A DNA stretch of 64,000 bases from Gammaproteobacteria bacterium (GCA_965243205.1 CBDEUK010000001.1:32001-96000), one strand, 5' to 3'. Shown: positions 5,588-27,164, counted from the stretch's first letter. A program made the numbers and translations. The notes: generated by a model from the letters alone, not told the origin.

Positions 5588-6022
5588 CTAACTCTCATTT
5601 GCATCAAACATGACAATATCGCCATCACCATAAACATCATCATCGTATATACCAGGCAACACACTTTCTGGTGTCATTTTAAGTTTTAAGTTTGCTCGCC
5701 AAATATTGCCGCGAACCAAACTGATATCTGGCTCTTCATCAATAAAAAATGTTGCAGGGCTATGTGTGCGAGGATGTATCCAGTCAAATGGAAGTGAGCC
5801 GCTAGCCAAAGTGTTGGTATAAAAATCGTCTAGAATAGCAGTCTCGTCATTTGTTAATTGAATGTGGCAATTAATTTCCCGTTCGCCAGCCGTGTATCGT
5901 CGCCTTCGTTTTGGCCCTCCGGCATCCATATCCGTTTTCAAAGTAAGCTCAGGAGGCTTTTCGCTTAAACCTTCAGAGGAAACATACTGAGGTAAAGTTA
6001 ATGGCCAAACCGCATTAGCCAC
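5588..6022 (-). CDS. Distal tail / minor tail protein
   Basis: WPLTLP, TDMDAGGPKRRRRYT, FYTNTLASGSLPFDWIHP; immediately after the tape measure gene. Confidence 0.75.
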   Translation of the reverse strand: MANAVWPLTLPQYVSSEGLSEKPPELTLKTDMDAGGPKRRRRYTAGEREINCHIQLTNDETAILDDFYTNTLASGSLPFDWIHPRTHSPATFFIDEEPDISLVRGNIWRANLKLKMTPESVLPGIYDDDVYGDGDIVMFDANES

Positions 6023-8345
6023 GGTTAATCACCTCTGGCTTATTGAAGTTTTCAAGCCGGCCTTGTCGTTTCTGACGCCCTAGCGAATTCGATACTTCAA
6101 GATCAATGATCTGTTCATTATTAGGACCAGTTGACTCGCCAGTTTTCTCTACTTTCGAATCCGAATTGTTAGTAATGTTAATAATGACATTACCTTTACC
6201 CAAGGCCTTCATTTGCCCTTTTGTAAATACCCCTTCGTCTTCATGAATAATCGCGCGCATTTCTTTTGGCATTAAACCTTGATGGAAACGTGGAGCATTA
6301 TTAAAGTTAGCTAGATTGTCTGGACGTGAAACACTGCCTTCACTGGCAAGACCACCACTATGAAAAAGTGGTATATGTGTAATTAAATTGGAAACGGGAT
6401 CGGTGCTAGTACCGCTTAAAACAAAACGATCAGGATCGTTACCTGAACCAAAAATACTTCCAAAACCACCTTCTAATAAATCACCTAACATATTAAAGCC
6501 AGGTTCGAATAATTTTGTTAAAGCTAGCTTCTCTATCTGCTTTAACAGACTTCCAATAAAATCAGAAAAATTGCCTTCCGATTCAACCAACTCATCAGCA
6601 AACGAACGACTCCACCCTTCAACGGCACGGCGTAAATCTTTAAATGTCTCTTCACCTTCTTTATCGATATCATCAAATTGTTTTTTGTGAATGTCGCTCA
6701 TACGCTCAGAATGCTGAAGCATTAAACGTTCTTTTAATTGAATGTATTCAGAATCACTGATTTCAGCCGTTGCATAAAAGCGATCAATCATGGCCAAAGT
6801 TTCATCGTAATGAGCGCGCTGCAATTCTTCTTCGGTAGCTAAGCCACGTCGCACTGTCTCTAAGTTTCTTTCTACTGCTTTGCGACGTTCTTCATATTCA
6901 CGCTTTAAATCTATATCAAGTTGCTGAAGAATTCTTTCATCTTCTAATGCATCTTGCTTAGCTTCACGCTCTGCTTTTAAACGTTCACGTTCAGCTTTAG
7001 AAGCATTTCGTTTAGCATCTTCTAAGGCTTTGACTTGATCTATTTCATCAGCTAACTGCAATAACCGTGTCGCATGTTGCGAACTAATTCCTCTAAGGGA
7101 ACCACTCTCGATTTCATTTCGAATACGCGCAGCCTCACTGACATTATTTAACGCAAACACCTGGCGTTCATATTTATCAATTAACTTAGCGCTTTGCTCA
7201 TCCAGCTTAGAAAGAGAGCCGCTTAGTCGTTGAGGCGTATCATCAAACTCAATATTGGAACCATTTAAAACATCCAAATGTTTTTTGAGTTCTACAGCTT
7301 CTTTTTTAAGCTCGGTAAGATTTTTTAATAATTGAGGGCGTCCACGAGTACGCTTTTGACTTAATCGATTTTCGATGCTGGCTATTTGAGACTCAACTTC
7401 TTTGAGTTTGTTTTCTGAAGCGCTTTGACTGAGTTCATTGATCTCAATATCAATCAAACCAATTTTGTCAGCAAGCGTCGTAAAGTTTTCAATTAAAGAA
7501 GTGGTAAACACTAATGTTTTATTGAATGCTGGAATTAATTCTTCGCCAAGCTCACTGGCTAGAATGAAAAAAGAATTTTTTAATCTATTTACATTAGCAT
7601 CAGTGCTATCCATTGCTGTTTCAAGATTCTCGCCAAAGGTGTTGCGAAGTTCCACAGCCATCTTAGGTAATAAATCATCCGCTAAGACAGAGCCCGAATC
7701 TAACATATCGTTAAGCTCTTGCGTGGTGACGCCCATAGCACGGGCAGCAATTTGGAATGCACCAGGTATACGCTCACCTAACTGACCACGTAATTCTTCA
7801 GCTTGAACATTACCCTTAGACATCATTTGCTCTATCGCACGAAGAGCGCCTTCAGTGTCGTAAGCACTAAGCTGTAAAGTACGTGAAGCCTCCATAACGG
7901 CTGTAAAAATTTCGCGTGTGGCTTCGCCTTCTAAGTTCGTCCCTTTACTTGCTGCAGTTAATTTAGCATAAGCACTAGCAGTGCTCTGTAATTCAAGACC
8001 TAAGCGTTCGGCTTCGCTTTTTACAAACAACATATTCGCTGCAGCTTCACCAGTATTATCGGAAGCAGCTAGCATTTGATTGTTCAAGCGCTCCATTTCA
8101 ATCGCTACAGGGATGACAGCATCAGCGTATCGCTTAAAAACTAAAGCAGCGGCACCTATGCCACCAGCCACCAAGCCAACACCAATAGCTAGCTTGGCCA
8201 TTCGGCTTTTTAAAACATTCGTTTTGCCGGCTAGGTTATCGCTTTCATTGGATAGACGCTTAGTTTCGCCAGTAGCCTTATCAATCTCCGTTGCGTACTG
8301 CTGACCATCCATAGTCAAAACCACTTTAATCTTTTTGTCTGCCAT
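6015..8345 (-). CDS. Tail tape measure protein
   Basis: Tape-measure motif ALRAIEQMMSKGNVQAEELRGQLGERIPGAF, long coiled coil, C-terminal FHSGG...EGVFT. ATG 8345 (MADKK) preferred because the track start lies at the terminator U-tract. Confidence 0.93.
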   Translation of the reverse strand: MADKKIKVVLTMDGQQYATEIDKATGETKRLSNESDNLAGKTNVLKSRMAKLAIGVGLVAGGIGAAALVFKRYADAVIPVAIEMERLNNQMLAASDNTGEAAANMLFVKSEAERLGLELQSTASAYAKLTAASKGTNLEGEATREIFTAVMEASRTLQLSAYDTEGALRAIEQMMSKGNVQAEELRGQLGERIPGAFQIAARAMGVTTQELNDMLDSGSVLADDLLPKMAVELRNTFGENLETAMDSTDANVNRLKNSFFILASELGEELIPAFNKTLVFTTSLIENFTTLADKIGLIDIEINELSQSASENKLKEVESQIASIENRLSQKRTRGRPQLLKNLTELKKEAVELKKHLDVLNGSNIEFDDTPQRLSGSLSKLDEQSAKLIDKYERQVFALNNVSEAARIRNEIESGSLRGISSQHATRLLQLADEIDQVKALEDAKRNASKAERERLKAEREAKQDALEDERILQQLDIDLKREYEERRKAVERNLETVRRGLATEEELQRAHYDETLAMIDRFYATAEISDSEYIQLKERLMLQHSERMSDIHKKQFDDIDKEGEETFKDLRRAVEGWSRSFADELVESEGNFSDFIGSLLKQIEKLALTKLFEPGFNMLGDLLEGGFGSIFGSGNDPDRFVLSGTSTDPVSNLITHIPLFHSGGLASEGSVSRPDNLANFNNAPRFHQGLMPKEMRAIIHEDEGVFTKGQMKALGKGNVIINITNNSDSKVEKTGESTGPNNEQIIDLEVSNSLGRQKRQGRLENFNKPEVINRG

Positions 8346-8361
8346 ATAAATTCCACGCATA

Positions 8362-8426
8362 AAAAAAGCCGGAGCCCCTTTCGAGGATCCGGCTTTTCGC
8401 TTTAAATACGTTATGCCTTAGTTCAG
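8362..8426 (-). terminator. Conserved 65-bp leader with intrinsic-terminator hairpin, copy A (in front of the tape measure gene)
   Basis: Minus strand CTGAACTAAGGCATAACGTATTTAAAGCGAAAAGCCGGATCCTC-GAAA-GGGGCTCCGGC-TTTTTTT; near-identical to 20453-20516. Confidence 0.85.
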
Positions 8427-8441
8427 TAAATTATAGCAAGA

Positions 8442-8711
8442 TTATTTCAAATCAGACCCGCAATATTTACATTTTATTGCTGCTTTTTTAATGATTTCAG
8501 CACAATAAGGGCATTCTTTCATGTCGCCATCTTGAACCCGCTGCTGTTCCAATTTTTCAGTATTCGTTTTTAACGCTGCTACGATAACAAGACCGAGTAA
8601 GGGAGATATGAACAAACACATGATGAAGGCTTTCAGCCCTGAGCGCCCTTTTTTATGAGCAAACACCGCTACAGCTGCAGACAACAAAAACCATAAAAAG
8701 AGAAATTCCAT
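8442..8711 (-). CDS. Moron-like membrane protein with C-terminal zinc ribbon
   Basis: Two TM helices and KECPYCAEIIKKAAIKCKYCG; strong RBS TAAGGAGG; extended -10-like TGATATAGT upstream; interrupts the chaperone-tape measure junction. Confidence 0.8.
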   Translation of the reverse strand: MEFLFLWFLLSAAVAVFAHKKGRSGLKAFIMCLFISPLLGLVIVAALKTNTEKLEQQRVQDGDMKECPYCAEIIKKAAIKCKYCGSDLK

Positions 8712-8751
8712 AAACGCCTCCTTACTGCGTATTTCTAGACTATATCATGGT

Positions 8752-9060
8752 TTAATCTGTGGGTTCACCACCAAACATCACATGCTCAATTTCAGAAAGC
8801 AATACCAACGACAAGTCTAAACGCCACCCTTTTGCCTCGATAACAGGAATATACACATTAAAATCTAAGCCAGTGACACCAGATAGATTGTTGCGCACTT
8901 GTCGCCAAAATTGACAAAATAAATCCCATACTGGTTTTTCCCATTTTAACTCAGGCGGCAGATCCTCCGGTTCTGGTTCCCAGCCTAAATCAAGAATATC
9001 TCTTAAGGCTTTGTCTCCGCCCCTGCGGTACCATCCTGCAAGGGCGGCGAGCCTTCCTTT
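8752..9060 (-). CDS. Tail assembly chaperone, -1 frameshift extension (gpT / DUF1799-like; absent from the ORF track)
   Basis: Open -1 frame overlapping the end of 9003-9413 with no usable start codon: KGRLAALAGWYRRGG...VWDLFCQFWRQVRNNLSGVTGLDFNV...; W-x-LF and G-x-TGLD pattern. Confidence 0.75.
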   Translation of the reverse strand, partial: KGRLAALAGWYRRGGDKALRDILDLGWEPEPEDLPPELKWEKPVWDLFCQFWRQVRNNLSGVTGLDFNVYIPVIEAKGWRLDLSLVLLSEIEHVMFGGEPTD

Positions 9061-9413
9061 GCTTGCGCTTCCTCTTTAACTACATGCATTTGCAAGGCTT
9101 TAACTTTGCCCATGATAAAATCTCGCGCTTTACCGACTTTCATTAATCGCGCGATGTTTACATCATTACATTCAGCAGGCTGCTCACGCTCATCAACAAC
9201 GCCTGTCCATTGTTTAATGCAATGCAAACCGACTAGCTCTGCATATTTATCTTGATCAACTTTTATATCAACAATGCGATCGTTTTTAACTTCCCGTTCG
9301 GTAGATTGTTCTCTAAACAAAGAATCCATGTCTTCTAAAAGAGGCTTCAATGTAAAAACGATGTCAGCCTCTTCCCATTTGGTCTTGACAGTAAAATCGC
9401 CAATCCGGAGCAT
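9003..9413 (-). CDS. Tail assembly chaperone (gpG-like)
   Basis: CIKQWTGVVDE motif; lies between the tail tube and tape measure genes. Confidence 0.75.
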   Translation of the reverse strand: MLRIGDFTVKTKWEEADIVFTLKPLLEDMDSLFREQSTEREVKNDRIVDIKVDQDKYAELVGLHCIKQWTGVVDEREQPAECNDVNIARLMKVGKARDFIMGKVKALQMHVVKEEAQAKEGSPPLQDGTAGAETKP

Positions 9414-9631
9414 TAAACGCTCACCTTTTCAAAGCCGTACGCATCTTCAAGCGCTTTAATAAGCTTCGGATCGGACGTAGAGACAATTCCATTTTGAATA
9501 ACAACATCATGCTCACCTACTTTCATTTTGCATTGCTCATAAGCAGAGGATTTAAAGGTGACTTCCTTGTCTTTAACGGCTTCCTTATCTTTAGTACCCA
9601 CGGCCCCTGCAGTCGTGTTTTCTTTTGACAT
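9413..9631 (-). CDS. Small phage hypothetical protein
   Basis: RBS AAGAGGT; stop overlaps the next start. Confidence 0.6.
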   Translation of the reverse strand: MSKENTTAGAVGTKDKEAVKDKEVTFKSSAYEQCKMKVGEHDVVIQNGIVSTSDPKLIKALEDAYGFEKVSV

Positions 9632-9739
9632 AAGCTTTACCTCTTTTTAAAAGTGTTTTCTTTACTTAAACAATATTTTAAAAACAAAACATTATTAAGA
9701 AATTGTTTTATATAAAAATATTTCTTGATTCAGTTTTGA

Positions 9740-10696
9740 TTAATAACTCGGAATTGAGTTAACCAACTCAATCGTTGGCGGGTTTGCATTAGAGTGCGCG
9801 CGCCAGTTAGTATCAATATGTAAACCTTTAGATGATTGAATTTCGTGTGGCATCTCTTCGAATTCAACGGCTGGTAAAATTAATTTCAAACTAGCATCGC
9901 CAGCTGCATTTTTACTTTCTAAGGTAAGTGGCAATGAAGTATGGTTCTTACCATAATCACGAATAGCTTCAGCAGTGTCTAAAATAAATCTTGCACTCCC
10001 ACTAATGGCAGGCTGGCCAACTAATACACGGCCATAGCCCTCTAATCCATCAGCTAACGTTTGACCTTCAAGATCGTTCGTTATTTCTACGCTTGCCTCA
10101 ACAACATCCCCCAATGTGCTAGCGCCTACCACATCATAAACATTACCTTGTCGGCCTTGCGCACGGTTCTTTGCGTAAACCGTTGGCGCAGCATCCCATG
10201 GCGTGGTTGGAGCAGGTTCAACTTCTTCGGCTCCGATCAATTCAAGACTCATGTTTTGTTCAGCCTCGATCACATTCCAACTTAATTTGCTTACCATCAT
10301 GCCTAGCCAGCGCTCGTAATCTGCTGGAGCGCCTAAATAACCTAACTCCATTAAAGCCGAAGGACGATCATTTAAATCGCATGTAAAAACATGAGTGTAC
10401 GGACCAGCGCCAGTAGTTGATGGAGCTCCCCATAACAAAGTTAACCATTGTCCAATTTCGTTTAAACATAAAATAGAACTTAAGCCACCTGTGACCATGG
10501 CATCGGCTGTATCGGTTTTTTCCTCCATAGGAGTAGCCTTTACAGTCGGATCTTGAACTCGAACCGGATTACGACCTATTTTTAAGCCTGGATTAAACTT
10601 CATAGAAAAAGCAGCGGCAGCACCTGGCGCAGTTCGATAAGTGCTTTCGCGTTGTAAAAGTAATTGCGTATTACGACCGTGTCTAACTTCTGCCAT
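9740..10696 (-). CDS. Major tail (tube) protein
   Basis: QRESTYRTAPG N-terminus, GAGPYTHVFT and ASVEITNDLE beta-rich segments; 318 aa; RBS GGAG; position. Confidence 0.8.
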   Translation of the reverse strand: MAEVRHGRNTQLLLQRESTYRTAPGAAAAFSMKFNPGLKIGRNPVRVQDPTVKATPMEEKTDTADAMVTGGLSSILCLNEIGQWLTLLWGAPSTTGAGPYTHVFTCDLNDRPSALMELGYLGAPADYERWLGMMVSKLSWNVIEAEQNMSLELIGAEEVEPAPTTPWDAAPTVYAKNRAQGRQGNVYDVVGASTLGDVVEASVEITNDLEGQTLADGLEGYGRVLVGQPAISGSARFILDTAEAIRDYGKNHTSLPLTLESKNAAGDASLKLILPAVEFEEMPHEIQSSKGLHIDTNWRAHSNANPPTIELVNSIPSY

Positions 10697-10708
10697 TGTA
10701 TTTCTCCA

Positions 10709-11125
10709 CTAATCTAATTCTTTCCACGTTAAACTGAATGCAACAAAACCATAAGGCGCTTCTAACTGCGCAGATTGCACATAGCTATTAAAATCAAAAC
10801 ATCTTGATGTACCGGTTGCTTGGTCCAGGATGTCTACCAAGTCATTGACTGCTTGCAGCTCTCTATTTTCTATCTCGATACCTTCCGAACCTTCAGGCAA
10901 AAGAAACATAAAAATGACATGAGCGCCAAGCTCTCCAGACATCTCCCGTAAAGTAATAGGTGAATTAAAACTGCTGCCACCATTCGCCATAACAATCCAA
11001 TAACCTTTAACTAAATCTTCATTACTAATGTTATGACGTTCTTTAAAGCTTCTTTTTACGACTTCATTCGGCTTAGCGTTTTGAATATCAACCGATAACG
11101 CATCTAAGACTTGAGAAAAATTCAT
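10709..11125 (-). CDS. Tail terminator / tail completion protein
   Basis: 138 aa between the gp10-like gene and the tail tube gene; called from synteny only. Confidence 0.55.
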   Translation of the reverse strand: MNFSQVLDALSVDIQNAKPNEVVKRSFKERHNISNEDLVKGYWIVMANGGSSFNSPITLREMSGELGAHVIFMFLLPEGSEGIEIENRELQAVNDLVDILDQATGTSRCFDFNSYVQSAQLEAPYGFVAFSLTWKELD

Positions 11126-11622
11126 GCAAACACCTCTTTAAGCCCTTCATTGACACCTTGATCAAGTAAAGCAGTAATTCGATCGCTTTTACTTTCTAAT
11201 GCAGGTAACACAAAAGGTTTGGCTTTAATTCCTTCTTCATAAATAGCGCGCTGAATTAAAAATGCTAAACTATCCAAACTCACACCTTCACGCGGTTGAA
11301 TACGTTTTACTTTTATCCAGTCCTTCAATGTTCTAATGCTTGGCGCACCACCAGGTTTTGTACCTTCTTCAACAAAAATTGCATGGCGTGCTCCCACGGT
11401 AACTTCAACTTCTGGCTTCAATAAAGTGCCGGTCTCTTTAACTTGGCCAGAGCTTATTAATTGTGAATAAGCAACGCTTTTATTCTTTCGAAGATGACGC
11501 TGCATCTCCCGCCACAGTTCATGGCCAGCACGCATCATTTTTGAAACGATCTTACGATTCATTACGCGAGGCGATTTACTAAAAGCATCTAGAACTTCTT
11601 TGGCGTCGAACTTAACACTCAT
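11122..11622 (-). CDS. HK97 gp10-like head-tail / tail completion protein
   Basis: HAIFVEEGTKP and IKAKPFVLPALE motifs. Confidence 0.75.
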   Translation of the reverse strand: MSVKFDAKEVLDAFSKSPRVMNRKIVSKMMRAGHELWREMQRHLRKNKSVAYSQLISSGQVKETGTLLKPEVEVTVGARHAIFVEEGTKPGGAPSIRTLKDWIKVKRIQPREGVSLDSLAFLIQRAIYEEGIKAKPFVLPALESKSDRITALLDQGVNEGLKEVFA

Positions 11623-12248
11623 GCTGTCTGCCTATAAAATTCGTTCATTAAATCTTTATACAACGCGTTCGGAGTCGAATTGCGCGGTGTACCAGAAATG
11701 CCATCTCGGATACTGACTGGTTTATGGCTATTACGCATAGCAACCGTTTTCATTACTTCTGCTTGGCATCGCAATAAAAACAACCCTTTGTCTTCTGCTC
11801 TTATAGTGGTGTTATTGGCAGTATCCGATAACACATGAAGTTTGGAGCACATAAAAGTAAAATCCGTGCCACAACAATTAATTAAATGCGCATCCGGCGT
11901 AGGCGTTAATAATAAAATTATTTGGTTATTGGTAGGATCGTGTAACTCTTTAACTTCAGGGATAATCTTTGGATAGTTCTGCTCCCAAGGCTTACGAGTA
12001 CTGATTTCATTCATACCGTAAACGACATGAATCATATGCATAAACGATTGCGGAGCAATATAGTCTGCCTTGCCAGCCTCGATGGTTACGGAATCCTGTA
12101 CCCTATAAAGACGATAACGACTAAAATCAGGAAGCGCGCCCGCAATAACTGAATCATAGTCGTCGCTATTATCTTTGACGAAAACACTAGCAACATCCTT
12201 GAGAGAATCTTTTAGTTCCGTTATGAAAGCATTCTTAGTAAAACTCAT
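11619..12248 (-). CDS. Head-tail adaptor / connector protein
   Basis: Position before the gp10-like gene; size and helix-beta-helix pattern. Confidence 0.5.
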   Translation of the reverse strand: MSFTKNAFITELKDSLKDVASVFVKDNSDDYDSVIAGALPDFSRYRLYRVQDSVTIEAGKADYIAPQSFMHMIHVVYGMNEISTRKPWEQNYPKIIPEVKELHDPTNNQIILLLTPTPDAHLINCCGTDFTFMCSKLHVLSDTANNTTIRAEDKGLFLLRCQAEVMKTVAMRNSHKPVSIRDGISGTPRNSTPNALYKDLMNEFYRQTA

Positions 12249-12254
12249 TACAAT

Positions 12255-12791
12255 TTACTTAAAATGAGTTGCTGGATGAGGCATTGGTTTAGACGCTACA
12301 GGCTCAGGGATACCCATAGCTTCTTTCAGACCGGTTAAACAATTTTGAGCGTAAGCCAATAACTGTTCATTTGTGACCAAGTTATGTTTAGCCAAACCAG
12401 ACACATACGATAAGTTAGCTCTACATGTACACTGTTTATCTTCTTTAGTAGTTAGCAAACCAAGTGACACGGCACCACCTGCAGCAGCACTGCCACCAAC
12501 ATTGGCAAAGCATGTTAAGTTTGATACGCCACCAAATATAGAAGGCGCTATTGCTGGCTCAGCCTCAATTTTATCACTACCGTTACCTGGTGCGACAGGA
12601 TGTTGAATGCTAATAGAATTGTCTAGGTTATTTGTATTATCTGAGCTTGCTACAGTGCTAACATCAATCGGCGCATTTACTTTTGCTTTGACAGTATCAC
12701 TACGATGAGAACTATCAGCATTAGCAGCTAACGAGTAAACAAAAAACATTCCGACAACACAAAGTAAAGTAATAAATTTTGAAATATTCAT
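12255..12791 (-). CDS. Exported Cys-containing phage protein of unknown function
   Basis: ATG 12791 with RBS GAGGA; signal peptide MNISKFITLLCVVGMFFVYSLAANA; AIAPS...C...GGS...D..C.CR pattern. Confidence 0.65.
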   Translation of the reverse strand: MNISKFITLLCVVGMFFVYSLAANADSSHRSDTVKAKVNAPIDVSTVASSDNTNNLDNSISIQHPVAPGNGSDKIEAEPAIAPSIFGGVSNLTCFANVGGSAAAGGAVSLGLLTTKEDKQCTCRANLSYVSGLAKHNLVTNEQLLAYAQNCLTGLKEAMGIPEPVASKPMPHPATHFK

Positions 12792-12795
12792 GATA

Positions 12796-13050
12796 TTAAT
12801 CCTCTTTAAATTTTGATGCTTTATGCATTTCTTTAGCCTCATAACAATCATTTGCGCCATGCTCATTCATGTAATATTCGCAATTATTTTCGGCTATCTG
12901 TTGCTTCCCTTCGTCACTCAAAACCTTTTTATCCTGTTCCGATAAATAAACAGGATCGAACCACAAAGATTCCTCCGAAATAGTCTTATAACAACAGCCG
13001 TTAAATAAGATCGTCAATGTCAGGGTCAGACATATTTTCAATATCGACAT
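12796..13050 (-). CDS. o-spanin (Rz1-like lipoprotein)
   Basis: Lipoprotein signal ILFNG-CC; overlaps the 3' end of the i-spanin candidate. Confidence 0.7.
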   Translation of the reverse strand: MSILKICLTLTLTILFNGCCYKTISEESLWFDPVYLSEQDKKVLSDEGKQQIAENNCEYYMNEHGANDCYEAKEMHKASKFKED

Positions 13051-13195
13051 TAGCCTTTCTCTTATTGTCTATAGCTTGGGTCTGTTTTTTATTTTGAGAT
13101 TTAATCGTATTTACTTGTTTGGACTTCTTGCCGTAAGAATAAGCAAGGCCTATTAACACAACAAGAAGCCCAAAGATGACAGCAAGTGCAGTCAT
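13001..13195 (-). CDS. i-spanin (Rz-like)
   Basis: Single N-terminal TM helix followed by a short coiled coil; in the lysis cassette. Confidence 0.65.
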   Translation of the reverse strand: MTALAVIFGLLVVLIGLAYSYGKKSKQVNTIKSQNKKQTQAIDNKRKANVDIENMSDPDIDDLI

Positions 13196-13530
13196 TACTT
13201 CTTAACCGAATACCATCCCATCATTCGAATGATCTTAATAAACCAGTTAACGGCTTCATCGTCCCAAGTGTTTTTTGTCCATCGAGCAATTGACTGAAAT
13301 ATCAAAACGAGAGTAGGTAGCAACACCACTACATAAGCAACCCACTGAGGAATAAAGCTTGGGAGAACTACTGTATTTGGATCGGCAATCTCTTGAGCAG
13401 AAGCTAAACCAGGAATCAATACAAAAACCAACGTAAGCAATATAGAAAAGACAAGAAAAAATACAATATTTGATAACTGACTCAAAAAATTATCATACTT
13501 ACTAAAATCAATATTAAACATAATGATCAC
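13195..13530 (-). CDS. Holin-like membrane protein
   Basis: Two hydrophobic helices and a TKNTWDD motif; directly after the endolysin. Confidence 0.6.
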   Translation of the reverse strand: MIIMFNIDFSKYDNFLSQLSNIVFFLVFSILLTLVFVLIPGLASAQEIADPNTVVLPSFIPQWVAYVVVLLPTLVLIFQSIARWTKNTWDDEAVNWFIKIIRMMGWYSVKK

Positions 13531-13547
13531 CTTTATAAGTTAAAAAA

Positions 13548-14117
13548 TTAAGCTGCCTGCAAATCAGGCGCATACCTCTTTAAAAACGCATTAATATCAA
13601 AGCTAGGGCAGTCCTTTAACCATTCGTGTTTTTTTATTACACCATCACCATCTTTGTCTGGTGATAATTCTCTATGGCTAGTAATTACCGCATCAGGCCA
13701 TCGCAGTTTGCTCATTCGAATGCAAGTAATTAAAGCCCACTTCTGTTTAGTAGTAACTATCGCGCTTGGTTTATTATTCATATCCAAGCCACCTATATAA
13801 ACTATTCCAATAGAGTCCGTGTTATGCCCGTAAGTGTGTGCGCCAGGTATTGAAACCGGTCGCCCTGCCTGCACTAATCCATTTCGCGGAACTACATAGT
13901 GGTAAGCAATGTCATCCCAACCATTGCCGCGTAAGTTTTGCCATTCTGTTGGCAAATCCTCGATCGAAAGATATACTTTTCCTTGAAAATAAAAGGTGCC
14001 GTCCGGCTTTTCTTTTGGTGCAATATGAAACTGTCTAATCTCTTCTACACCATAGCCACTTGATACGTTTGGTCTATTAGCAGAACAATGAACAATTATT
14101 TTTTTTATAGACCTCAC
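13548..14117 (-). CDS. Endolysin, N-acetylmuramoyl-L-alanine amidase (T7 lysozyme / Amidase_2 family)
   Basis: IIVHCSA, GWDDIAYHYVV, GAHTYGHNTDSIGI, SHRELSPD and KDCPSFD zinc-amidase motifs. Confidence 0.93.
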   Translation of the reverse strand: MRSIKKIIVHCSANRPNVSSGYGVEEIRQFHIAPKEKPDGTFYFQGKVYLSIEDLPTEWQNLRGNGWDDIAYHYVVPRNGLVQAGRPVSIPGAHTYGHNTDSIGIVYIGGLDMNNKPSAIVTTKQKWALITCIRMSKLRWPDAVITSHRELSPDKDGDGVIKKHEWLKDCPSFDINAFLKRYAPDLQAA

Positions 14118-14341
14118 TTTAAAACCTTCTTAACTTTATCCAGTAACTGATTCGTTTTATTTATATGCTCTTTATTATCAGATACTCTTTTTGATATTAA
14201 CTTTTGAGCTGCTTCGGAGCTATCGGCCACGCGCTTAGCTAACACTTTAAAGTCTTTGCATTGTTTGTTAATGGTTTCAAGACTATTATCAAGCTCAGTC
14301 TGATCATCTTTGGGTAAAAAAGGAACAACTATAGCGTTCAC
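14114..14341 (-). CDS. Small coiled-coil phage protein
   Basis: Translationally coupled to both neighbours; helical composition. Confidence 0.55.
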   Translation of the reverse strand: MNAIVVPFLPKDDQTELDNSLETINKQCKDFKVLAKRVADSSEAAQKLISKRVSDNKEHINKTNQLLDKVKKVLK

Positions 14342-14559
14342 TATTTCCCACCATTTTTTTCAATTTTCAAAACTGTCAAAATCAAAGCCATGTCTTTCGT
14401 TAACTCAGATATATTACTTATAATGAATTTAACCAGCTCTCGATTAGCTTTAAACTGCAAAATGTTTGCGACTATTGAAGAAAACAAACATAAAGCTAAA
14501 ACAGCGATAGCGACGTTGTCGTATGTAAACAACCAATCAAAATATTTAGTTTCTGGCAT
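14341..14559 (-). CDS. Single-TM holin/antiholin candidate
   Basis: One TM helix and a basic C-terminus, upstream of the endolysin. Confidence 0.5.
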   Translation of the reverse strand: MPETKYFDWLFTYDNVAIAVLALCLFSSIVANILQFKANRELVKFIISNISELTKDMALILTVLKIEKNGGK

Positions 14560-14595
14560 TGCATTTGTCTTTATAAGTAATCTGTCATTTAAAAA

Positions 14596-15498
14596 TTAAT
14601 ATAAGGATTGCAAATAGATAATTACTTTTCTCAAGAAATTTCTTTGTGTTTCATCTTCATACTCTTGTTTAGATTTTTCTATCTTTGCCAAATATTTATC
14701 AACCCATTCTTTATTAGACCAATCATAGTTTGGCCCACTCCAAATAATGACTTTGTTAGTCATTGATAAAACAAAATCAATTTGCATCGAAAAAAAATCG
14801 TGTTCTATGGGCGTATTCCGTAAAGCTTTGTCTCCTTTGTCATGATAAGTCGGCATAAGAATAGGAATAACTTCTTTACCGCCTAAGAATTGGCGCGACT
14901 GATAAATATTTTCAAAGGCATAACGCTGCCATTGTTCGCGTAAACCATAGAAGGTATAAAGAGAGGGAAATATTGCATCAACCTCATCTACAAGGCGTTG
15001 CATTGACTTGTTTCTATCGTACCAATCGAAATAATCTTGTCGTCTACCTAGATCTTTAGGATGCGCAATACCAGTCGCAGGCCAGAAAGCGCGCTCTGGT
15101 ACCATTGAATAGATGCCGACCTTAAAACGTTCTCCATAAACTTCTTTAAATTGTTTTACAATAGGGATTAATGCGTCAGCTAACTCTTTTCCGCCTTTTA
15201 ATATTTTACCTTTATCATCCTTATAGTGTTCGATGTTTATGCAAACATAATTAACATCTTCACTACTAATATTTCCGCCTTCAAAATCAAATATAGAGCC
15301 GAATTTGTTTGATAGAACACCAGGCGCAGGCCATTCGCCATTTATTTTTTGTTTCCATATATCCCAAACACCAACAACAACAATCTTTTCAAAGTTAACA
15401 TCAGGTTTATTAGGATGATTATTTGTTGCGTCGAATATTTCAGCCGAAGCAAAGAACGTAAAGCTTAGAAAGAAAAATAAAATGATTTTCTTAAACAT
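14596..15498 (-). CDS. Secreted TIM-barrel glycoside hydrolase-like protein (hyaluronidase/GH56-like)
   Basis: Signal peptide MFKKIILFFFLSFTFFASA; CINIEHY and LVDEVDAIFPSLY resemble GH56 IDWE and ALYPSIY; VIIWSG at the C-terminus. Confidence 0.55.
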   Translation of the reverse strand: MFKKIILFFFLSFTFFASAEIFDATNNHPNKPDVNFEKIVVVGVWDIWKQKINGEWPAPGVLSNKFGSIFDFEGGNISSEDVNYVCINIEHYKDDKGKILKGGKELADALIPIVKQFKEVYGERFKVGIYSMVPERAFWPATGIAHPKDLGRRQDYFDWYDRNKSMQRLVDEVDAIFPSLYTFYGLREQWQRYAFENIYQSRQFLGGKEVIPILMPTYHDKGDKALRNTPIEHDFFSMQIDFVLSMTNKVIIWSGPNYDWSNKEWVDKYLAKIEKSKQEYEDETQRNFLRKVIIYLQSLY

Positions 15499-15506
15499 AA
15501 GGGATC

Positions 15507-17222
15507 TTAATTGTTCGAGAAGCATCGCTGAATCACGTCATCCGCAACAGCAAGATGACCAATGTTTGTTAAATGAGAAGCGTCTGCGTAATAAGAAGGA
15601 TCTGTAATATTTCCTCCAGCAGGATCCATTATCCATCCCAAATCAATCATTGCGGTATTGTCACGCTCTAAGGCTATCTCTCGATCGGCTTCTCGATACT
15701 GTTGCAATAGTGAGTTGTCAGATGTATGCGATTCGCGATGAGATGGCATTAAAACAAAGCTAACGTTTTGAGAAGCAATGCCCTTTGCTGCGCAAGCTGC
15801 TAATAGCTTATCCATAATGGCTTGCGAATTATTTTTATAAGTTTCCTTGGTTTGCGAGCCGCTTCGTTCGTTCATTCCAGAGTTAATCCAAAAGTTAACT
15901 TTTGGTTCAACAGCAGGTGCCAAATCAAGCTGACGCCTAACACCTTGATCGGCAAAGAAACCGATTTTTTCATTAGTTGAAGCATTAAAATAAGCTAAAG
16001 TATTATCCAGCGAATGACCGCCAAACGAATAATGCCCTTGCACAGATGAGCCGTAGCTAAGATCGGTCCTCATAATCTCAGCCCCAATAAGACATGCCAA
16101 GCCAGCATGGTTTCTAACTTCGAATAGAGTTTGGTCTTGAGGGTGACGAACACCACCCGCGCCAAACGTGTCAGGAATAACAAGCCTATCTATAAAATAT
16201 TCATTCACGTTATGAACATTTCGGGTTTCATTTACGATTGTATATGGAGCTTTTTGTACTCTTGCCCATAAATCATAAGTACCACCGCCTGCGTCAAAAC
16301 CGATTTGATGAATTCTTAGCTCTGATGACCCTTGACCAGGCATCCAATTACATTTGGTTACACGAATCGCATCGCCAAAGCTTATAGTATTGTTCGTGCC
16401 GCCTTGTAAACTTGCAACTGTGTAAGTGTTGGCGCCGTTGGCTGTAATAAAACCAAATGAACCATCTGTTTCATTCGTTAAGATACCACCTACGAAACTA
16501 TCAGGCGTTGAGCTCAAGCCTGTTTCTGTAGCAGTCAGCACACCGTTAGCACCATCATGAACGACTCGCTGATAGTCTCCAGAAGTTAATCGCCATACAT
16601 TACCGCCTAAAGCAAAAGCTGTATCGTGCGCGTAATCTTCCTCCCAGTTGGCATTGTTTAAATCAGGAAAAAGGGCCGTAATTAAGGATGGAGGGTTGGT
16701 ATGTTCTCCAATATTAACCCCATCCCCTATTCGATTACCTGAAAGATTTGGCTCAACAAAATATCCGCGTTGGTTATTTAGAAATGTTTCAGGATTAATT
16801 CCAATATAACCCTCGCCAGTAAAAGCGCCATTGTTATTATTGAAAGTATGTAAAGGGCTTGAGTAAATGTTGCCGTTGTTTTGTTGGAAAGCCGAGATTA
16901 AAGCGTCCAGCCAACCTACACCTCCTATTTTGCCATTTGAGTCAGCAACAAGATGATTGTCAACAAAGCCATTACCAGAAAATGCGCGCTGGATTGCTGC
17001 GGTAACATTAGAATCCATAACACCATAAAGCTGATCGCTTTTGACGTTATTAGCAGTAATTCCTGTTAAATCCGCTGCCGTTAAATTTCTATAAACAGGG
17101 TTACCAGTAACTTGATCTACTCCGTCTTGAATTTTCATTACAGAGCTGCCGTCCCAAGGAACAAAATCACCCTGCCCCCCGTTAGCAGATTGATCGAAAA
17201 TATGAAGTCTAACCTTACTCAT
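15507..17222 (-). CDS. SGNH/GDSL-type hydrolase with a large inserted beta domain
   Basis: Block I-like LVADSNG, block II SFGGHS, block III INSGMNE, block V DASH. Confidence 0.65.
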   Translation of the reverse strand: MSKVRLHIFDQSANGGQGDFVPWDGSSVMKIQDGVDQVTGNPVYRNLTAADLTGITANNVKSDQLYGVMDSNVTAAIQRAFSGNGFVDNHLVADSNGKIGGVGWLDALISAFQQNNGNIYSSPLHTFNNNNGAFTGEGYIGINPETFLNNQRGYFVEPNLSGNRIGDGVNIGEHTNPPSLITALFPDLNNANWEEDYAHDTAFALGGNVWRLTSGDYQRVVHDGANGVLTATETGLSSTPDSFVGGILTNETDGSFGFITANGANTYTVASLQGGTNNTISFGDAIRVTKCNWMPGQGSSELRIHQIGFDAGGGTYDLWARVQKAPYTIVNETRNVHNVNEYFIDRLVIPDTFGAGGVRHPQDQTLFEVRNHAGLACLIGAEIMRTDLSYGSSVQGHYSFGGHSLDNTLAYFNASTNEKIGFFADQGVRRQLDLAPAVEPKVNFWINSGMNERSGSQTKETYKNNSQAIMDKLLAACAAKGIASQNVSFVLMPSHRESHTSDNSLLQQYREADREIALERDNTAMIDLGWIMDPAGGNITDPSYYADASHLTNIGHLAVADDVIQRCFSNN

Positions 17223-17224
17223 AA

Positions 17225-17776
17225 TTATTCTTGATCGTCTTGTTCGTCTTCGGCAGCTAACTCGCTAAGACGTGCTTGAAGCAATTCAATGATATCTTCA
17301 CGTTGTTGAAACTCACGCTCATGTTCAAGCATTTCAGCAACGTCCCAACCATCAAGATCGGCAATATACTCTTTCATTTCATCAGCTTTCATGCCGAGTA
17401 CTTCTTGTATCTCTGCAGCACGTTTAATAATTGCTTCTTTCAATGGAGTAACAACACCAGTTCGATTCTTGTCGGACTCTTCTAATTCAAGAATTTCTTG
17501 AAGTGAAGTAACTGGTAATGGTGTTACAGATAATCGTTCAACTACTTTGCCAACCGCTTGATCAAGTAAAGTAACAAATTCGGGGTTCGGCTCAGTTGAA
17601 TCACTCGAAGTAGTTTCTTCTTTTGTTTCGCTCAACTCAGCTTCTTTAGCTTCGGCTTTTGCAATTGAATCAGCTGATTTAACGACATCACACCAGCGGC
17701 CCTCGCCAGGAGGAATCATCATTCCGCCAACAAACATATTGGATTTGCTGTCATTCTTTACAAATTCTTTACCCAT
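17225..17776 (-). CDS. Capsid-associated hypothetical protein with repeated helical motifs
   Basis: Follows the major capsid gene; LELEESDKNRTGVV and LEHEREFQQREDII repeats; RBS GGAG. Confidence 0.6.
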   Translation of the reverse strand: MGKEFVKNDSKSNMFVGGMMIPPGEGRWCDVVKSADSIAKAEAKEAELSETKEETTSSDSTEPNPEFVTLLDQAVGKVVERLSVTPLPVTSLQEILELEESDKNRTGVVTPLKEAIIKRAAEIQEVLGMKADEMKEYIADLDGWDVAEMLEHEREFQQREDIIELLQARLSELAAEDEQDDQE

Positions 17777-17787
17777 GTAATATCTCC

Positions 17788-17812
17788 AAAAAAGTTAGCC
17801 TTCCTTGGCTAA
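17788..17812 (-). terminator. Hairpin plus U-tract after the major capsid gene
   Basis: TTAGCC-AAGGAA-GGCTAA-CTTTTTT on the minus strand. Confidence 0.6.
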
Positions 17813-17832
17813 AGGTTTGCTGATGAAGCCGG

Positions 17833-20433
17833 TTATATAGCTCTAACGACTCTCGCGCTTGAGCTGTATTGCATGATGGCTGTGTTAGCAGCTTTTAATT
17901 GAGTCGGTGTATGGCACACAACAAATTGGTCGCCATAAGCTTCTTTCTCGCCTGTGAAATCGCCATTTGCATCGCGAGCGTCTTGCAGTTGACCCATTTG
18001 CCAAGGTTTCATCATGCGGAACCTAGTAGTGTTACGTTCGCCGATCACTAAGTAACGATCACCCATGTGCAAGCCAGGCGCGTTCGATTCAAAGATAGGT
18101 ACGCCTTTTACCTTACCCAATGAACCCATTTCATTTAGGCTGGTGCCAGCTCTCGCAAAGTTTGCTGAAAAATCTCGGGCTTGCTCGACCGCCGTTTTAT
18201 AGGTTTCACTCATGATGCCAAGATCAGCGTTGTAGTAACGTTGGTTTTTGATCATGGATTTACGCAAACCAAGTCGATACAACCATTTACTCCAGTGGTC
18301 TTTAACATCAACTCCACCTGGCAAATCAGTATCAAACGCATAAAGGTTAGTTGCGTATGAATAGCTAACAACGATAGCAGTGGCATTGGCAGGAGTTTGA
18401 ACAACTCCATCTTCGTTAACCACGCTTAGCTCACCTAAGTCATAATCAAGCAAGTAATAATTACCTGCAGCTTGCTCACCAGTACCGTCATACTCAGATA
18501 ACTGTGAACCGCCCACGCTTACCGTCACAGGATTAACCGTATTGCCAACTTGATTACCTTTAAGATCAAACTCACTGCGAGGACGAACAACAGGGAAGTT
18601 ATCAAGGAGAAAAACATTATTGGTGCCGTTAACGTCGCCGCCAATGGCTTCGTTGGTAACAGCAACCGCTTGAAACTCTAGACACGCTTTCAAAATTTCA
18701 TTCATGATGATGTCTTCGAGATCTTCACGAATAATACGGATTGCATTTAAAGCGTTCTCTTGAACGATATCCCAGTTATAAATACTGGCTGCGGTCAAAT
18801 AACGAAGTTCATCAGAAATCTTGAAAGATAACTTTTGAGGGATTGGACGCGCTTCTTCACTGGTTTGAATCATGCCGCTTCGTTTAATGCCCTGCCCTTC
18901 ATACTTGCGGACTTTTCCTTTGCCAGCAGCAGAGGTGTCGCGATAAGAATAAGGAAGGTTTGCAATCGCATTAAAAGGGTATGTGCCAATATTAACAAAC
19001 CTTAATGCGTTAAGATCGTATAAGGCTTCACGAATAACGGTACGTTCGAAAATAGCTGGCACATCAACATCTGGTGTTTGAGCTTGGCCTCCAGCCAATG
19101 CAACAGCCTCTTCATGCAGTCGACCTGCATTTTCGGCGTCATACATAGCGACAGAACCTTCAACAAGATTGCGAACTTCAGGAGAAACGTTATCCATATC
19201 GCGCGCGCTTAAGCCTAAACGCCGGTCTGTAGTTTCTTGTAGTTCACGAATCGCATTTGAATCATCAATACTGATATGAGTATTTCCGTGAGGGCCGTTA
19301 AAACCTCGGTCAGCCAACTGCTGTGTTACTGACAATTGATTAGCAATCTTTAATTGGCTCTCTGCAAATTTCTTGACTTGTTCCTCAGTCATATCAGCAG
19401 TAATAAGATCGCTATCATTTAGCATGGCTTGATTTTCTTCACTCAAAGAAGTGAAGGTATCCGACGCACTTAATGTGTCGCTAAACAATTGCACATTGGC
19501 GTCTAAACGTTCCTGAGCTTGATCAGCTTCTGCAGCGGCTCGATTACGTTCATCTTCCATGAGTTGAAGAACTTCTTCTTGAGACAGGCCAGTCGTAACA
19601 GATAGATTGATAGGCTGACTAGGGTCGACAGAGCCTTCATTGATTTGCTCGGCAAGCAATAAGGCTGACTCTTCGATTGAATCTGCTAACGCTTGTGCCT
19701 GAGCTTCTTCAGTAAAGCCACTGCATTTGTTGATGAACTGATCGCAAAGTTTCTTAATCAGATCCTCGGATAAACCTTTAGCCCGCAGATTCTCTGCCAG
19801 CTTTTTGCGAATAATTTCCCACATCTTAGTAATCTCCTCTGAGAGAGCAATTTTAAATTGAGGCGAAACAGCGTATTCATCACCTTCTTCAAACTCGAAG
19901 CCGATGTTTTCTGAAAGACCTACCTCATCAGGATTAATAGGATCTAAACGTTTGACGCGGGGACGTATCGTTAACGCTGCGCCAACCAGTAAAGTGCCTT
20001 TTTTATCTTCGGTTTCGGGGTCTTTGTAGTCGTTGATAAACTCGACAGAGAAATAACGGAAGCCTTTATTGTGAATGGCATCTACGCCCAGCGCAGTCCA
20101 TTCAATATCACCGAATAATTTATTTCCGCTTCGAATATGCAGCTTATTAATGAACCCAGCGGCACCGTGCATGTCGCTATGAGAGATATTGATCGCAATA
20201 CGCTGACCATAAACATCTTCATTAAAGTTCTTAACCATTTCGCGCAGCATCGCGCGATCGATTTTTAACTCGCCATAAAACGGATCATCGGGATAAGTAA
20301 AAACACGAGTCAACATCACAGTACTGGTCTTACTGCCTTCGGCAAGGTCAACACGATCGGTGTACAAACGAATTGCATCACCCGCATAGTCTTCGAGACA
20401 GATTACCACTTGTGCTAAATGTGACTTGGTCAC
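17833..20433 (-). CDS. Prohead protease (Mu gpI-like) - scaffold - major capsid protein fusion
   Basis: N-terminal INISHS, WTALG, FRYFSVEF, GAALTIRP Mu-like protease motifs; acidic coiled-coil middle; capsid-like C-terminal half (ISDELRY, GKVKGVPIFES). GTG start with GGAG. Confidence 0.85.
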   Translation of the reverse strand: MTKSHLAQVVICLEDYAGDAIRLYTDRVDLAEGSKTSTVMLTRVFTYPDDPFYGELKIDRAMLREMVKNFNEDVYGQRIAINISHSDMHGAAGFINKLHIRSGNKLFGDIEWTALGVDAIHNKGFRYFSVEFINDYKDPETEDKKGTLLVGAALTIRPRVKRLDPINPDEVGLSENIGFEFEEGDEYAVSPQFKIALSEEITKMWEIIRKKLAENLRAKGLSEDLIKKLCDQFINKCSGFTEEAQAQALADSIEESALLLAEQINEGSVDPSQPINLSVTTGLSQEEVLQLMEDERNRAAAEADQAQERLDANVQLFSDTLSASDTFTSLSEENQAMLNDSDLITADMTEEQVKKFAESQLKIANQLSVTQQLADRGFNGPHGNTHISIDDSNAIRELQETTDRRLGLSARDMDNVSPEVRNLVEGSVAMYDAENAGRLHEEAVALAGGQAQTPDVDVPAIFERTVIREALYDLNALRFVNIGTYPFNAIANLPYSYRDTSAAGKGKVRKYEGQGIKRSGMIQTSEEARPIPQKLSFKISDELRYLTAASIYNWDIVQENALNAIRIIREDLEDIIMNEILKACLEFQAVAVTNEAIGGDVNGTNNVFLLDNFPVVRPRSEFDLKGNQVGNTVNPVTVSVGGSQLSEYDGTGEQAAGNYYLLDYDLGELSVVNEDGVVQTPANATAIVVSYSYATNLYAFDTDLPGGVDVKDHWSKWLYRLGLRKSMIKNQRYYNADLGIMSETYKTAVEQARDFSANFARAGTSLNEMGSLGKVKGVPIFESNAPGLHMGDRYLVIGERNTTRFRMMKPWQMGQLQDARDANGDFTGEKEAYGDQFVVCHTPTQLKAANTAIMQYSSSARVVRAI

Positions 20434-20452
20434 TTTTCATTTCTCCAAACGC

Positions 20453-20516
20453 AAAAAAGCCGGAGCCTCTTTCGAGGATCCGGCTTTTCGCTTGAATACG
20501 TTATGCCTTAGTTCAG
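20453..20516 (-). terminator. Conserved 64-bp leader with intrinsic-terminator hairpin, copy B (in front of the capsid gene)
   Basis: Minus strand CTGAACTAAGGCATAACGTATTCAAGCGAAAAGCCGGATCCTC-GAAA-GAGGCTCCGGC-TTTTTT. Confidence 0.85.
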
Positions 20517-20538
20517 ATTAAATAATTAGCTTATTTGA

Positions 20539-20802
20539 TTAAGAAGTCAAGGGTTCTATCTTAATCTGTAGAGCTTTCTTTATGCGAGACTTATACTTTT
20601 CACACATGCTTTCATAGCTCTCAAGAATTTCGTCCTCATCATCAATATTTATAAATACATGAAATATATTTTCTTGCGTTTGATTAGAAGGGTTATAATT
20701 AATCAGATAAGTCGCTCCGTTCTGAACGACCCAAAAGCTAACAACAACATTATATCCGTCTATATTCATAATGGCTGATATTGTAATGGAACTGTCACCC
20801 AT
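20539..20802 (-). CDS. AT-rich hypothetical protein (moron-like)
   Basis: 87-aa ORF overlapping the Com-like gene; no recognisable motif. Confidence 0.5.
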   Translation of the reverse strand: MGDSSITISAIMNIDGYNVVVSFWVVQNGATYLINYNPSNQTQENIFHVFINIDDEDEILESYESMCEKYKSRIKKALQIKIEPLTS

Positions 20803-20957
20803 TTAGTACAACGACATTTAGCATTAGCTTGTCCATCAGGGTTAATACGAATTACTCGGGACTTAACCACTATGCCGTCAAATAATTCCCTATCACAATA
20901 AGGGCAATTAACTTTTGGTCTTGGGCCTGACTCAATTAGATTATTCACCGTCGTCAT
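20766..20957 (-). CDS. Com-like (Mu Com family) zinc-finger regulator
   Basis: CPYCDRELF...AKCRCTKWV resembles Mu Com CxxCxKLLF...RCPRC; ATG 20957 after GGAGG; 63 aa. Confidence 0.6.
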   Translation of the reverse strand: MTTVNNLIESGPRPKVNCPYCDRELFDGIVVKSRVIRINPDGQANAKCRCTKWVTVPLQYQPL

Positions 20958-21081
20958 CAACTTCCTCCAAATCACCTTCTACTTCACCAACTTCTTGCAA
21001 ATAAGCAAGCTCGGCGTTATCTCTTGTCAAACCAAACGCTTTCATGAGTTCGTTTATACGTTTTTCTTTTTCTTCGATCAT
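20941..21081 (-). CDS. 46-aa acidic protein, candidate MuF-toxin immunity (absent from the ORF track)
   Basis: ATGA overlap with the MuF stop; MIEEKEKRINELMKAFGLTRDNAELAYLQEVGEVEGDLEEVDDDGE. Confidence 0.55.
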   Translation of the reverse strand: MIEEKEKRINELMKAFGLTRDNAELAYLQEVGEVEGDLEEVDDDGE

Positions 21082-27128: not shown

Positions 27129-27164
27129 AAAAAAGGGTTTCATAATGAAACCCTTTCTTGTTTT
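27129..27164. terminator. Bidirectional intrinsic terminator, copy 1
   Basis: AAAAAAGGGTTTCA-TAA-TGAAACCCTTTCTTGTTTT. Confidence 0.8.

Follow-up and report, generated by a model that had tools for sequence, protein, structure and literature searches.

Late transcription in lambdoid phages is governed by a promoter, PR', and a strong intrinsic terminator, tR', placed ahead of the late genes, with Q as the antiterminator; the short RNA of this system is known as 6S RNA or StxS. In lambda the leader is 194 nucleotides (nt) long, and the hexamer at which a sigma-dependent pause occurs has A as its second and T as its sixth base. As part of one report on the Stx phages describes it, PR' is always active and is terminated just downstream in lysogens, where a short RNA is made (PMC7547250). 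Here we describe an element, which we call E, that is present twice in a 64,000-nt stretch of DNA from a gammaproteobacterium (GCA_965243205.1, CBDEUK010000001.1:32001-96000; hereafter the window, meaning this whole stretch), once directly ahead of the capsid gene and once directly ahead of the tape-measure gene of a prophage. We propose, with a probability of roughly 0.45, that E is a promoter-proximal terminator that gates the late genes according to the PR'-tR' logic.

Two copies of one element in a prophage

The window holds the late half of a prophage of ~45 kb in which nearly all genes run in the same direction, the minus strand being the coding strand throughout. Copies A and B of E lie on this strand, at 8426..8362 and 20516..20453, and are 64-65 nt each. 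A preliminary description of this DNA had reported a duplicated element at the two sites that differs by two substitutions and one 1-nt indel; this was reproduced, with one extra T in the terminal tract as a further difference, and the stem substitution is indeed pairing-neutral, giving U-G in copy A and U-A in copy B. Both copies begin, on the minus strand, with CTGAACTAAGGCATAACGTATT, continue into the linker (A)AAGCGAAAA, and end in a hairpin with the consensus GCCGGAUCCUC-GAAA-G(G/A)GGCUCCGGC followed by 6-7 U. The parts of the two copies and the genes that they precede (aa, amino acids; SD, Shine-Dalgarno sequence) are the following:

8430..8438, minus strand: extended -10-like TGcTATAAT of copy A, 10 nt upstream of the motif; promoter score 9
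8409..8419, minus strand: leader motif AAGGCATAACG of copy A, mainly single-stranded in the predicted structure of the terminated RNA
8361..8400, minus strand: GCGAAAA, hairpin GCCGGAUCCUC-GAAA-GGGGCUCCGGC (8393..8368) and U7 (8367..8361) of copy A; predicted intrinsic terminator (fold, covariation)
6015..8345, minus strand: tape-measure gene (PF20155, tape-measure PHROGs), SD GGAA, start 15 nt past the U-tract
20522..20550, minus strand: promoter-like TTGACT (20550..20545), 17 nt, AATTAT (20527..20522) of copy B; promoter score 9
20499..20509, minus strand: leader motif AAGGCATAACG of copy B (sequence match)
20453..20491, minus strand: GCGAAAA, hairpin GCCGGAUCCUC-GAAA-GAGGCUCCGGC (20484..20459) and U6 (20458..20453) of copy B; predicted intrinsic terminator
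17833..20433, minus strand: 866-aa Mu-I-type protease/scaffold with a probable major capsid domain (PF10123, phrog_328), start GTG 20433, SD GGAG 20446..20443

The U-tract of copy A ends at 8361 and that of copy B at 20453. The -10 of copy B ends 12 nt before the motif, and its -35 overlaps the end of an 87-aa open reading frame (ORF). The start of the tape-measure gene was placed at ATG 8345, and not at the in-frame upstream ATG 8360 of the ORF call, by N-terminal alignment with the orthologue in G102, a genome of a different genus in the same taxonomic family as the source genome (G000).

Exactly two occurrences of the 22-nt 5' part are present in the window, against 0 expected (100 shuffles). 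By BLAST and by covariance models, A and B are the sole copies in the 2.79 Mb genome, and no further ones turned up in the rest of the prophage. Both regions fold better than 200/200 shuffles (z -3.7 and -4.3), and the terminator scan returned folding energies (dG) of -17.2 for copy A and -18.1 for copy B. Given this structure and the U-tracts, both copies are predicted to be intrinsic terminators. Three sequencing runs presumed to be RNA had no reads on 8000-21000, a region that one DNA run of the source sample did cover; this says nothing about expression.

E as a phage-borne family

The G102 prophage carries the same two copies ahead of the same two genes (BLAST, 126 genomes of the taxonomic family). 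Between G000 and G102, E together with ~30 nt upstream is 83-90% identical, whereas the flanks are ~50% identical, and in G126, whose tape measure was found by protein search and is 31% identical, the exact 11-nt motif and GCGAAAAGCC stand before a different stem. The earlier claims that the 5' part is conserved and that E is not a plain terminator are thereby borne out, the 5' part being far more constrained than its surroundings.

An unbiased test set, independent of the sequence of E, was provided by 80 viral loci gathered via capsid-protein alignment. Model R2 found E directly before the capsid-fusion gene in 26 of these 80 capsid-related loci (expectation value, E<0.01), and in the subset of 66 loci having enough upstream sequence the motif was present with ≤2 mismatches in 17, lying 74-130 nt upstream of where the capsid gene is estimated to start (74-92 nt for 16 of these 17). 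E is kept across phages whose capsid proteins are as little as 34% identical, and the units span 0.38 to 0.63 G+C. Natural variants of the motif include AAGGCGTAACG, AAGGTATAACG, ACGGCATAACG and AAGGCATCACG, and more distant members retain only AAGG(C/T)(A/G) and the hairpin.

True copies were found in 2/126 genomes of the taxonomic family and, in a class-wide sample, in 1/150 genomes other than G000. Being so sporadic across genomes, E is, on this sampling, phage-borne and not a host repeat, and as a family it is no recent accident; a dispersed host repeat, the outcome that would have undermined the preliminary description, is also at odds with there being just two copies in G000, both in the prophage. 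Gapped DNA patterns recovered further members from viral and metagenome contigs, in which the pattern itself fixed the motif and the stem base, so that their constancy there is no evidence of conservation. Pattern matches without the (A/G)CGAAA block (L194, L195, L196, L197 and L200) were excluded as chance before the alignments were made, and L198 was unrecovered by model R1 and hence is not in alignment A8. A MAFFT alignment (A3) mispaired the stems under RNAalifold, and model-based alignments were used instead. Scans with 15-mers returned at least 118 stretches of genome contigs and 38 of viral contigs, all of them chance matches.

Rfam gave 0 matches in the window at the gathering score, and at E up to 10, in five loci, it gave only chance-level matches on the element, such as MicC (E = 7-8.6), so that no family was matched. 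A full-text literature search for the 11-mer returned nothing relevant (one unrelated primer paper). As far as limited full-text literature searching and Rfam go, E appears to be absent from print.

The layout predicted for E consists of a sigma-70-like -35/-10 pair, the 11-nt AAGGCATAACG, a variable linker ending in (A/G)CGAAA(A), and a GC-rich hairpin with a U-tract. In the 17 model-aligned members of A8, 96.6% of the cells of the hairpin are paired and 8/11 pairs are compensatory, in an alignment that was fitted to the model and whose GCC/GGC stem base is partly a product of the search patterns; sliding the partners by 1-3 columns as a control lowered pairing to 37-48%. This covariation supports the hairpin. 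Stem energies range from -12 to -19.5 kcal/mol and are followed by 6-7 U, with tracts of 5-9 T in the listed family members. A gap of 2-6 nt separates the U-tract from the SD of the following gene, and the hairpin itself stops short of this SD. In six phages (the G000 prophage and five others syntenic with it), no compact, strong terminator other than the E hairpins lies between genes on the sense strand upstream of the tail end, apart from one after the capsid gene of G129; since the terminator finder was conservative (9/14 E hairpins recovered in one class), its counts are not used as frequencies. A 3-bp helix joining CGY in the motif to the RCG that precedes the A-tract (C-G 11, U-G 4, U-A 2 and no mismatch in 17 sequences) was considered and rejected, being too short and its covariation too thin.

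A promoter-like part and a leader motif

A -35/-10 pair scoring ≥9 and located 3-16 nt from the motif was found in 14 of 40 non-redundant E units, against a mean of 0.26 (maximum 3) in random windows and of 1.1 (maximum 4) in shuffles. The mean promoter score is 7.2 in E units versus 2.8 in random windows and 4.3 in shuffles; the members of the family are related, and every enrichment figure therefore overstates independence. The -10 region of copy A, TTGCTATAAT, is kept in the orthologous copy of G102 despite flanks that are ~50% identical, and copy B of G102 has TTGACT-17-AATCAT, keeping TTGACT and the spacing of the G000 copy (TTGACT-17-AATTAT). By inspection, all four tape-measure copies have a strong -10 at 9-11 nt before the motif. 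If transcription began ~7 nt after the -10, the motif would fall at about +1 to +15 of the transcript; once the RNA is terminated, most of the motif is predicted to be unpaired (mean 0.72).

Copies within one phage have the promoter region and the motif variant in common and differ in their stems. The variants are phage-specific, with AAGGCATCACG occurring twice in L405 and AGGCACAACG twice in L350, which suggests a phage-encoded reader of the motif.

Inverted repeats that are perfect or nearly so (for example GACAAC...GTTGTC, GACATAAC...GTTATGTC and CTACTAAT...ATTAGTAG) and that resemble operator or activator sites were noted at L409:3847-3891, at L381:2363-2407 and in L166/L171, immediately upstream of either the promoter-like part of E or the corresponding junction. 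Those of L166/L171 lie just upstream of the TTGACA that precedes the capsid-proximal terminator. These two belong to a set of high-GC capsid relatives (L165-L171, L372, L373, L411 and L417) without the motif and without the zinc-ribbon gene described below, in which TTGACA and a terminator hairpin are followed by a conserved leader of ~100-150 nt before the capsid gene.

A predicted gate for the late genes

Two features lead us to a gate. That so strong and so widely kept a terminator stands 15-19 nt ahead of the start of the gene for the most abundant virion protein implies that read-through must be controlled, and the conserved promoter-like part implies that the unit would start its own transcript. 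On the observed anatomy, conservation, hairpin covariation, promoter-hexamer enrichment and placement, we propose that a sigma-70-type promoter in E would start a transcript a few bases before the motif AAGGCAUAACG, which would run through the short linker into the strong intrinsic terminator ending 2-6 nt before the ribosome-binding site (RBS) of a major late gene. Unaided RNA polymerase, whether started at E or arriving from upstream, would halt at the U-tract, so that by default an RNA of ~60 nt would be released and the capsid and tape-measure/tail genes would stay off. During lytic growth, a phage-specified factor would recognise the leader motif, either as RNA or as DNA at the start site, and permit read-through, yielding the late mRNA. 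The regulated attenuator opened by a phage factor that the preliminary description envisaged thus remains the best reading, at the probability given above, and it has gained from the promoter-like hexamers directly upstream.

The same anatomy would be expected of a small-RNA gene with its own promoter and terminator, whose ~60-nt product would use the 5' motif as a seed on host or phage mRNAs, possibly with Hfq. The placement before late genes would then be secondary, and such a gene could coexist with a gate, as StxS does with PR'-tR' according to part of one report (PMC7547250), which also provides the precedent. The upstream hexamers, a terminator with 6-7 U and an A-rich stretch ahead of it, the mostly unpaired 11-nt motif and the two copies per genome all fit this possibility. 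However, no conserved complementary site emerged across the six phage genomes, the best-scoring start regions not being orthologous, and the lone exact sense-strand complement in the prophage, 14925..14915, is without a counterpart of ≤1 mismatch in G102. Beyond the prophage there are two further exact complements, each a single site, unlike a multi-copy rRNA or tRNA target, and a seed that stays constant over units of 0.38 to 0.63 G+C would require a universal target. A small RNA would also leave unexplained why E constantly abuts the RBS of late genes, and we hold this explanation to be unlikely. The complement within the prophage (window 14915-14925, minus strand) lies inside ORF 14596-15525 and is probably due to chance.

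Copies of E and inserted accessory genes

The usual position of E is after the zinc-ribbon gene and before the capsid gene, and there are one to three copies per phage. E starts ≤90 nt from the end of the zinc-ribbon frame in 9/26 loci bearing that gene (11 with two weak matches). In the G000 prophage, both copies follow an accessory gene, as had been stated earlier:

8442..8711, minus strand: 89-aa membrane/zinc-ribbon accessory ORF (PF13248, phrog_8436) between the tail chaperone and copy A, its stop codon (8444..8442) just before the -10-like element of copy A
20539..20802, minus strand: 87-aa accessory ORF between the zinc-ribbon gene and copy B; no relatives found

A rival account takes E to be constitutive punctuation, a terminator or insulator that ends the transcription of an upstream or inserted accessory gene and spreads as a homology patch for recombination, the motif being kept for a DNA-level or promoter-escape reason and no factor opening the terminator. 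The preliminary description had offered a recombination handle for accessory genes as its alternative, and this idea has gained support: genes inserted between the zinc-ribbon and capsid genes often have one E on each side (L405, L364/L321 and L350, with L409 and L349 as weaker cases). Likewise, a tape-measure E occurs only where the interval between chaperone and tape measure holds inserts (G000, G102, G126 and G129), and in G127 and G128, where these two genes abut, there is no insert and no E at that place. Copies within a genome are also more similar than orthologous ones (95% in G000 versus 81-85% to G102). On the other hand, a strong terminator without regulation would come at a cost if placed 15-19 nt ahead of the start codon for the protein that is most abundant in the virion, and the motif persists where the hairpin sequence has been fully replaced. 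E is furthermore present in single-copy phages without an insert between the zinc-ribbon and capsid genes (the capsid copy of G129, L340, L342 and L391), and classical morons reportedly bear unrelated terminators. Pure punctuation therefore seems to us an improbable account.

Candidate trans-acting factors

A gate would need an opener, and the gene that stands next to E in this phage group draws attention:

20766..20975, minus strand: small zinc-ribbon protein (CxxC...CxC), encoded just upstream of E in the phage group; candidate trans-acting factor

Its profile matches 6/6 phages and 7/15 further contigs scanned, with no match in the four motif-less ones (L165, L166, L170 and L171), and the motif (≤2 mismatches) is present in 14/26 loci with the zinc-ribbon gene versus 3/40 without it. 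The protein belongs to no Pfam family (E≤10 gives only chance zinc ribbons) and has no PDB match and no named relative. By position and co-occurrence it is the leading candidate for the factor, in an assignment that we consider doubtful.

If the assignment were correct, E might be the cis site of an undescribed form of site-specific antitermination, in which the adjacent zinc-ribbon protein of 60-70 aa binds the motif in leader RNA or DNA and suppresses the terminator. Only motif-bearing terminators would then be tolerated inside the late operon, and the promoter-motif-terminator unit would be a portable 'licence plate' that is copied upon accessory gene insertion, which would explain both why inserts are bracketed and why the copies of one phage have a phage-specific motif variant in common. 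We think it rather unlikely that this version is the right one.

A homologue of Mu Com was also considered for the zinc-ribbon protein and rejected: there is no Pfam match, and hhalign against Mu Com gave a probability of 19.9% over 14 columns, so that the earlier 'Com-like' label has been dropped. Phage CsrA was rejected as a general partner, since it is encoded in the G000 and G102 prophages and absent from four other E-bearing phage records. These CsrA homologues, present besides the host copy, score 89-91 bits to PF02599 and lie at G000:C1:26538-26693 and G102:C26:249971-250129.

The proximity of a zinc-ribbon gene also bears on a translational switch, in which the 5' part, in the read-through mRNA, would pair past the U-tract and hide the RBS until a small zinc-finger protein opens it in the manner of Com and mom. 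The predicted centroid structure of copy B contains a pairing of UUCAAGCG with CGUUUGGA that masks GGA in the SD; in addition, family members repeatedly show (A/G)CG ahead of the A-tract and CGUUU behind the U-tract. The copy-specific RBS pairing put forward earlier thus has local support in copy B, but family-wide it is weak: complementarity between the motif region and the 20 nt past the U-tract is slightly above shuffles (mean duplex energy -7.45 versus -6.61, z -2.4), the effect is small and the pairings vary among members. The hairpin proper stops before the SD, the zinc-ribbon protein is no detectable relative of Com, and a switch of this kind would need neither the U-tract nor the upstream promoter, yet both are conserved. 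The Com site, given in part of one report as CC(N)2-3GAG in a hairpin loop (PMC6483171), is absent from E. Altogether, we judge a translational switch to be very unlikely.

Points against the proposed gate

Several observations weigh against the gate. Scores below 9 were obtained for 26/40 units, three of which have no qualifying hexamer pair, and the promoter enrichment is overstated owing to the relatedness of the 40 units. No lambda-type sigma-dependent pause is evident, since the motif lacks a consistent -10-like hexamer with A second and T sixth: on inspection, CATAAC is without the final T, TAACGT has it in low-GC members only, and the other members have TAACGC. Three Pfam Q families gave no match over the curated cut-offs in the genome (PF06530 reached 11.2 bits at best, elsewhere on C2, and PF03589 and PF06323 gave none in the whole genome), and no antiterminator was found among them. 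The co-occurrence of the zinc-ribbon gene and the motif is confounded by shared ancestry, as both features may mark one clade. Intrinsic terminators may leak, and a constitutive attenuator or insulator would look identical. Finally, the same junction of Mu is annotated in the opposite order, with a terminator (17908-17953) followed by promoter PI (17977-18043), whereas in E the promoter-like hexamers precede the terminator.

Comparison with known systems

E resembles the lambdoid PR'-tR'/Q arrangement in that, by its sequence, a strong intrinsic terminator ahead of late genes comes within tens of bases after a promoter, and in that a short RNA would be the expected default while late expression requires read-through. 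Apart from giving no Q match over the cut-offs and showing no evident pause hexamer, it differs in being inside the structural cluster, on the RBS of the capsid and tape-measure genes, whereas the lambdoid gate lies before the lysis genes; in occurring in one to three copies per phage instead of one; and in having a leader of about 60 nt, shorter than that of lambda.

Mu shares with the E-bearing phages the distribution of several late units (Plys, PI, PP and Pmom) within structural genes, as well as the junction itself, which runs from the portal, a MuF-type protein and a small protein through transcription punctuation to a Mu-I-type protease/scaffold/capsid. The reversed order of promoter and terminator is the main anatomical difference from the nearest studied head-module relative. 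No Mor/C-type activator turned up here, in searches none of which was aimed at that family, and the G000 phage is not transposable, having an integrase and a primase. As in the com-mom operon of Mu, the gene for a small zinc-binding protein is just upstream of a structured leader; however, that protein shows no sequence kinship to Com, the E hairpin is a predicted terminator without a start codon, and the motif AAGGCATAACG is in a single-stranded context, unlike the Com site.

The nut sites of lambda N and the put sites of HK022 also come as two near-identical copies, each just past a promoter, with a linear conserved element followed by a hairpin. Nut sites are built from boxA and boxB and put sites from two stems. 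E has neither architecture and no Rfam match; its hairpin loop is unconserved and a U-tract follows, so that the hairpin itself would be the terminator. As with morons, the tape-measure copy and several extra copies follow inserted accessory genes and would stop their transcription from entering the late genes, but the E terminators form one conserved unit with a 5' motif and a promoter-like part, which is also present without an insert.

Genetic setting of the prophage

Within the window, the prophage genes begin with those for a 317-aa protein, a 532-aa protein in the position expected of the large terminase, the portal, a MuF/SPP1-gp7-type protein and the small zinc-ribbon protein. They continue with the 87-aa ORF, copy B, the protease-capsid fusion, an inserted block including lysis genes, and neck proteins, and end with the tail tube, chaperones, the 89-aa zinc-ribbon membrane ORF, copy A, the tape measure, a J-like protein and a fibre. 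Beyond the window lie a divergent repressor, a CII-like activator, a 198-aa integrase-like protein, the CsrA homologue, methylases, a primase and an integrase.

The gene for the 866-aa protein has orthologues in 6/6 phages. Its C-terminal half is probably the major capsid protein, given synteny, the lack of any other capsid candidate in shorter relatives and an Atlas lead to capsid clusters (score 0.90). AlphaFold2 on a five-sequence alignment gave no usable capsid fold (predicted local distance difference test, pLDDT, 29.7), and a sequence search of this half against PDB gave chance matches only.

The lysis block (an amidase and two Rz-like spanin ORFs; window 12796-14117, minus strand) lies between the capsid and neck genes and belongs to a stretch of ~5.5 kb without a counterpart in the five syntenic phages. 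Directly upstream of the head genes (27626-34298, minus strand) are two large ORFs, an SpvB/FG-GAP protein of 887 aa and an RHS-repeat protein of 1340 aa, bracketed by similar AAAGGGTTTC...GAAACCCTTT hairpins at 27132-27156 and 34632-34672; their G+C of ~40% is phage-like, and that of the polysaccharide gene cluster beyond is ~30%. The 198-aa protein (G000:C1:27679-28275) consists of the catalytic tyrosine-recombinase domain only, is present besides the full-length integrase, and occurs in the early operon of 6/6 phages with 40-53% identity. In the G102 prophage, L003:346-431, inside the inserted block between chaperone and tape measure, matches the Rfam family sRNA-Xcc1 (RF02221) with 60.7 bits against a gathering score of 53; the G000 phage is without such a match.

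Concluding remarks

Judged from the sequences, E is real, under selection and widespread in an almost uncultured phage group, and it is best read as a variant of promoter-proximal termination control. Members of this group, which combine an integrase and a primase with a MuF-type head protein, a protease-capsid fusion and a siphovirus tail, occur commonly in Gammaproteobacteria from marine and other environments; the phage collection searched contains only one cultured relative, a distant one. A cassette of ~100 bp composed of a promoter, an 11-nt motif and a terminator would add to the ways in which temperate phages silence their structural genes, would be a source of prophage small RNAs in lysogens, and would serve as a simple portable switch for testing antitermination factors. 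The bracketing of inserts by E would, in addition, offer a mechanism by which accessory genes may enter late operons without loss of control.

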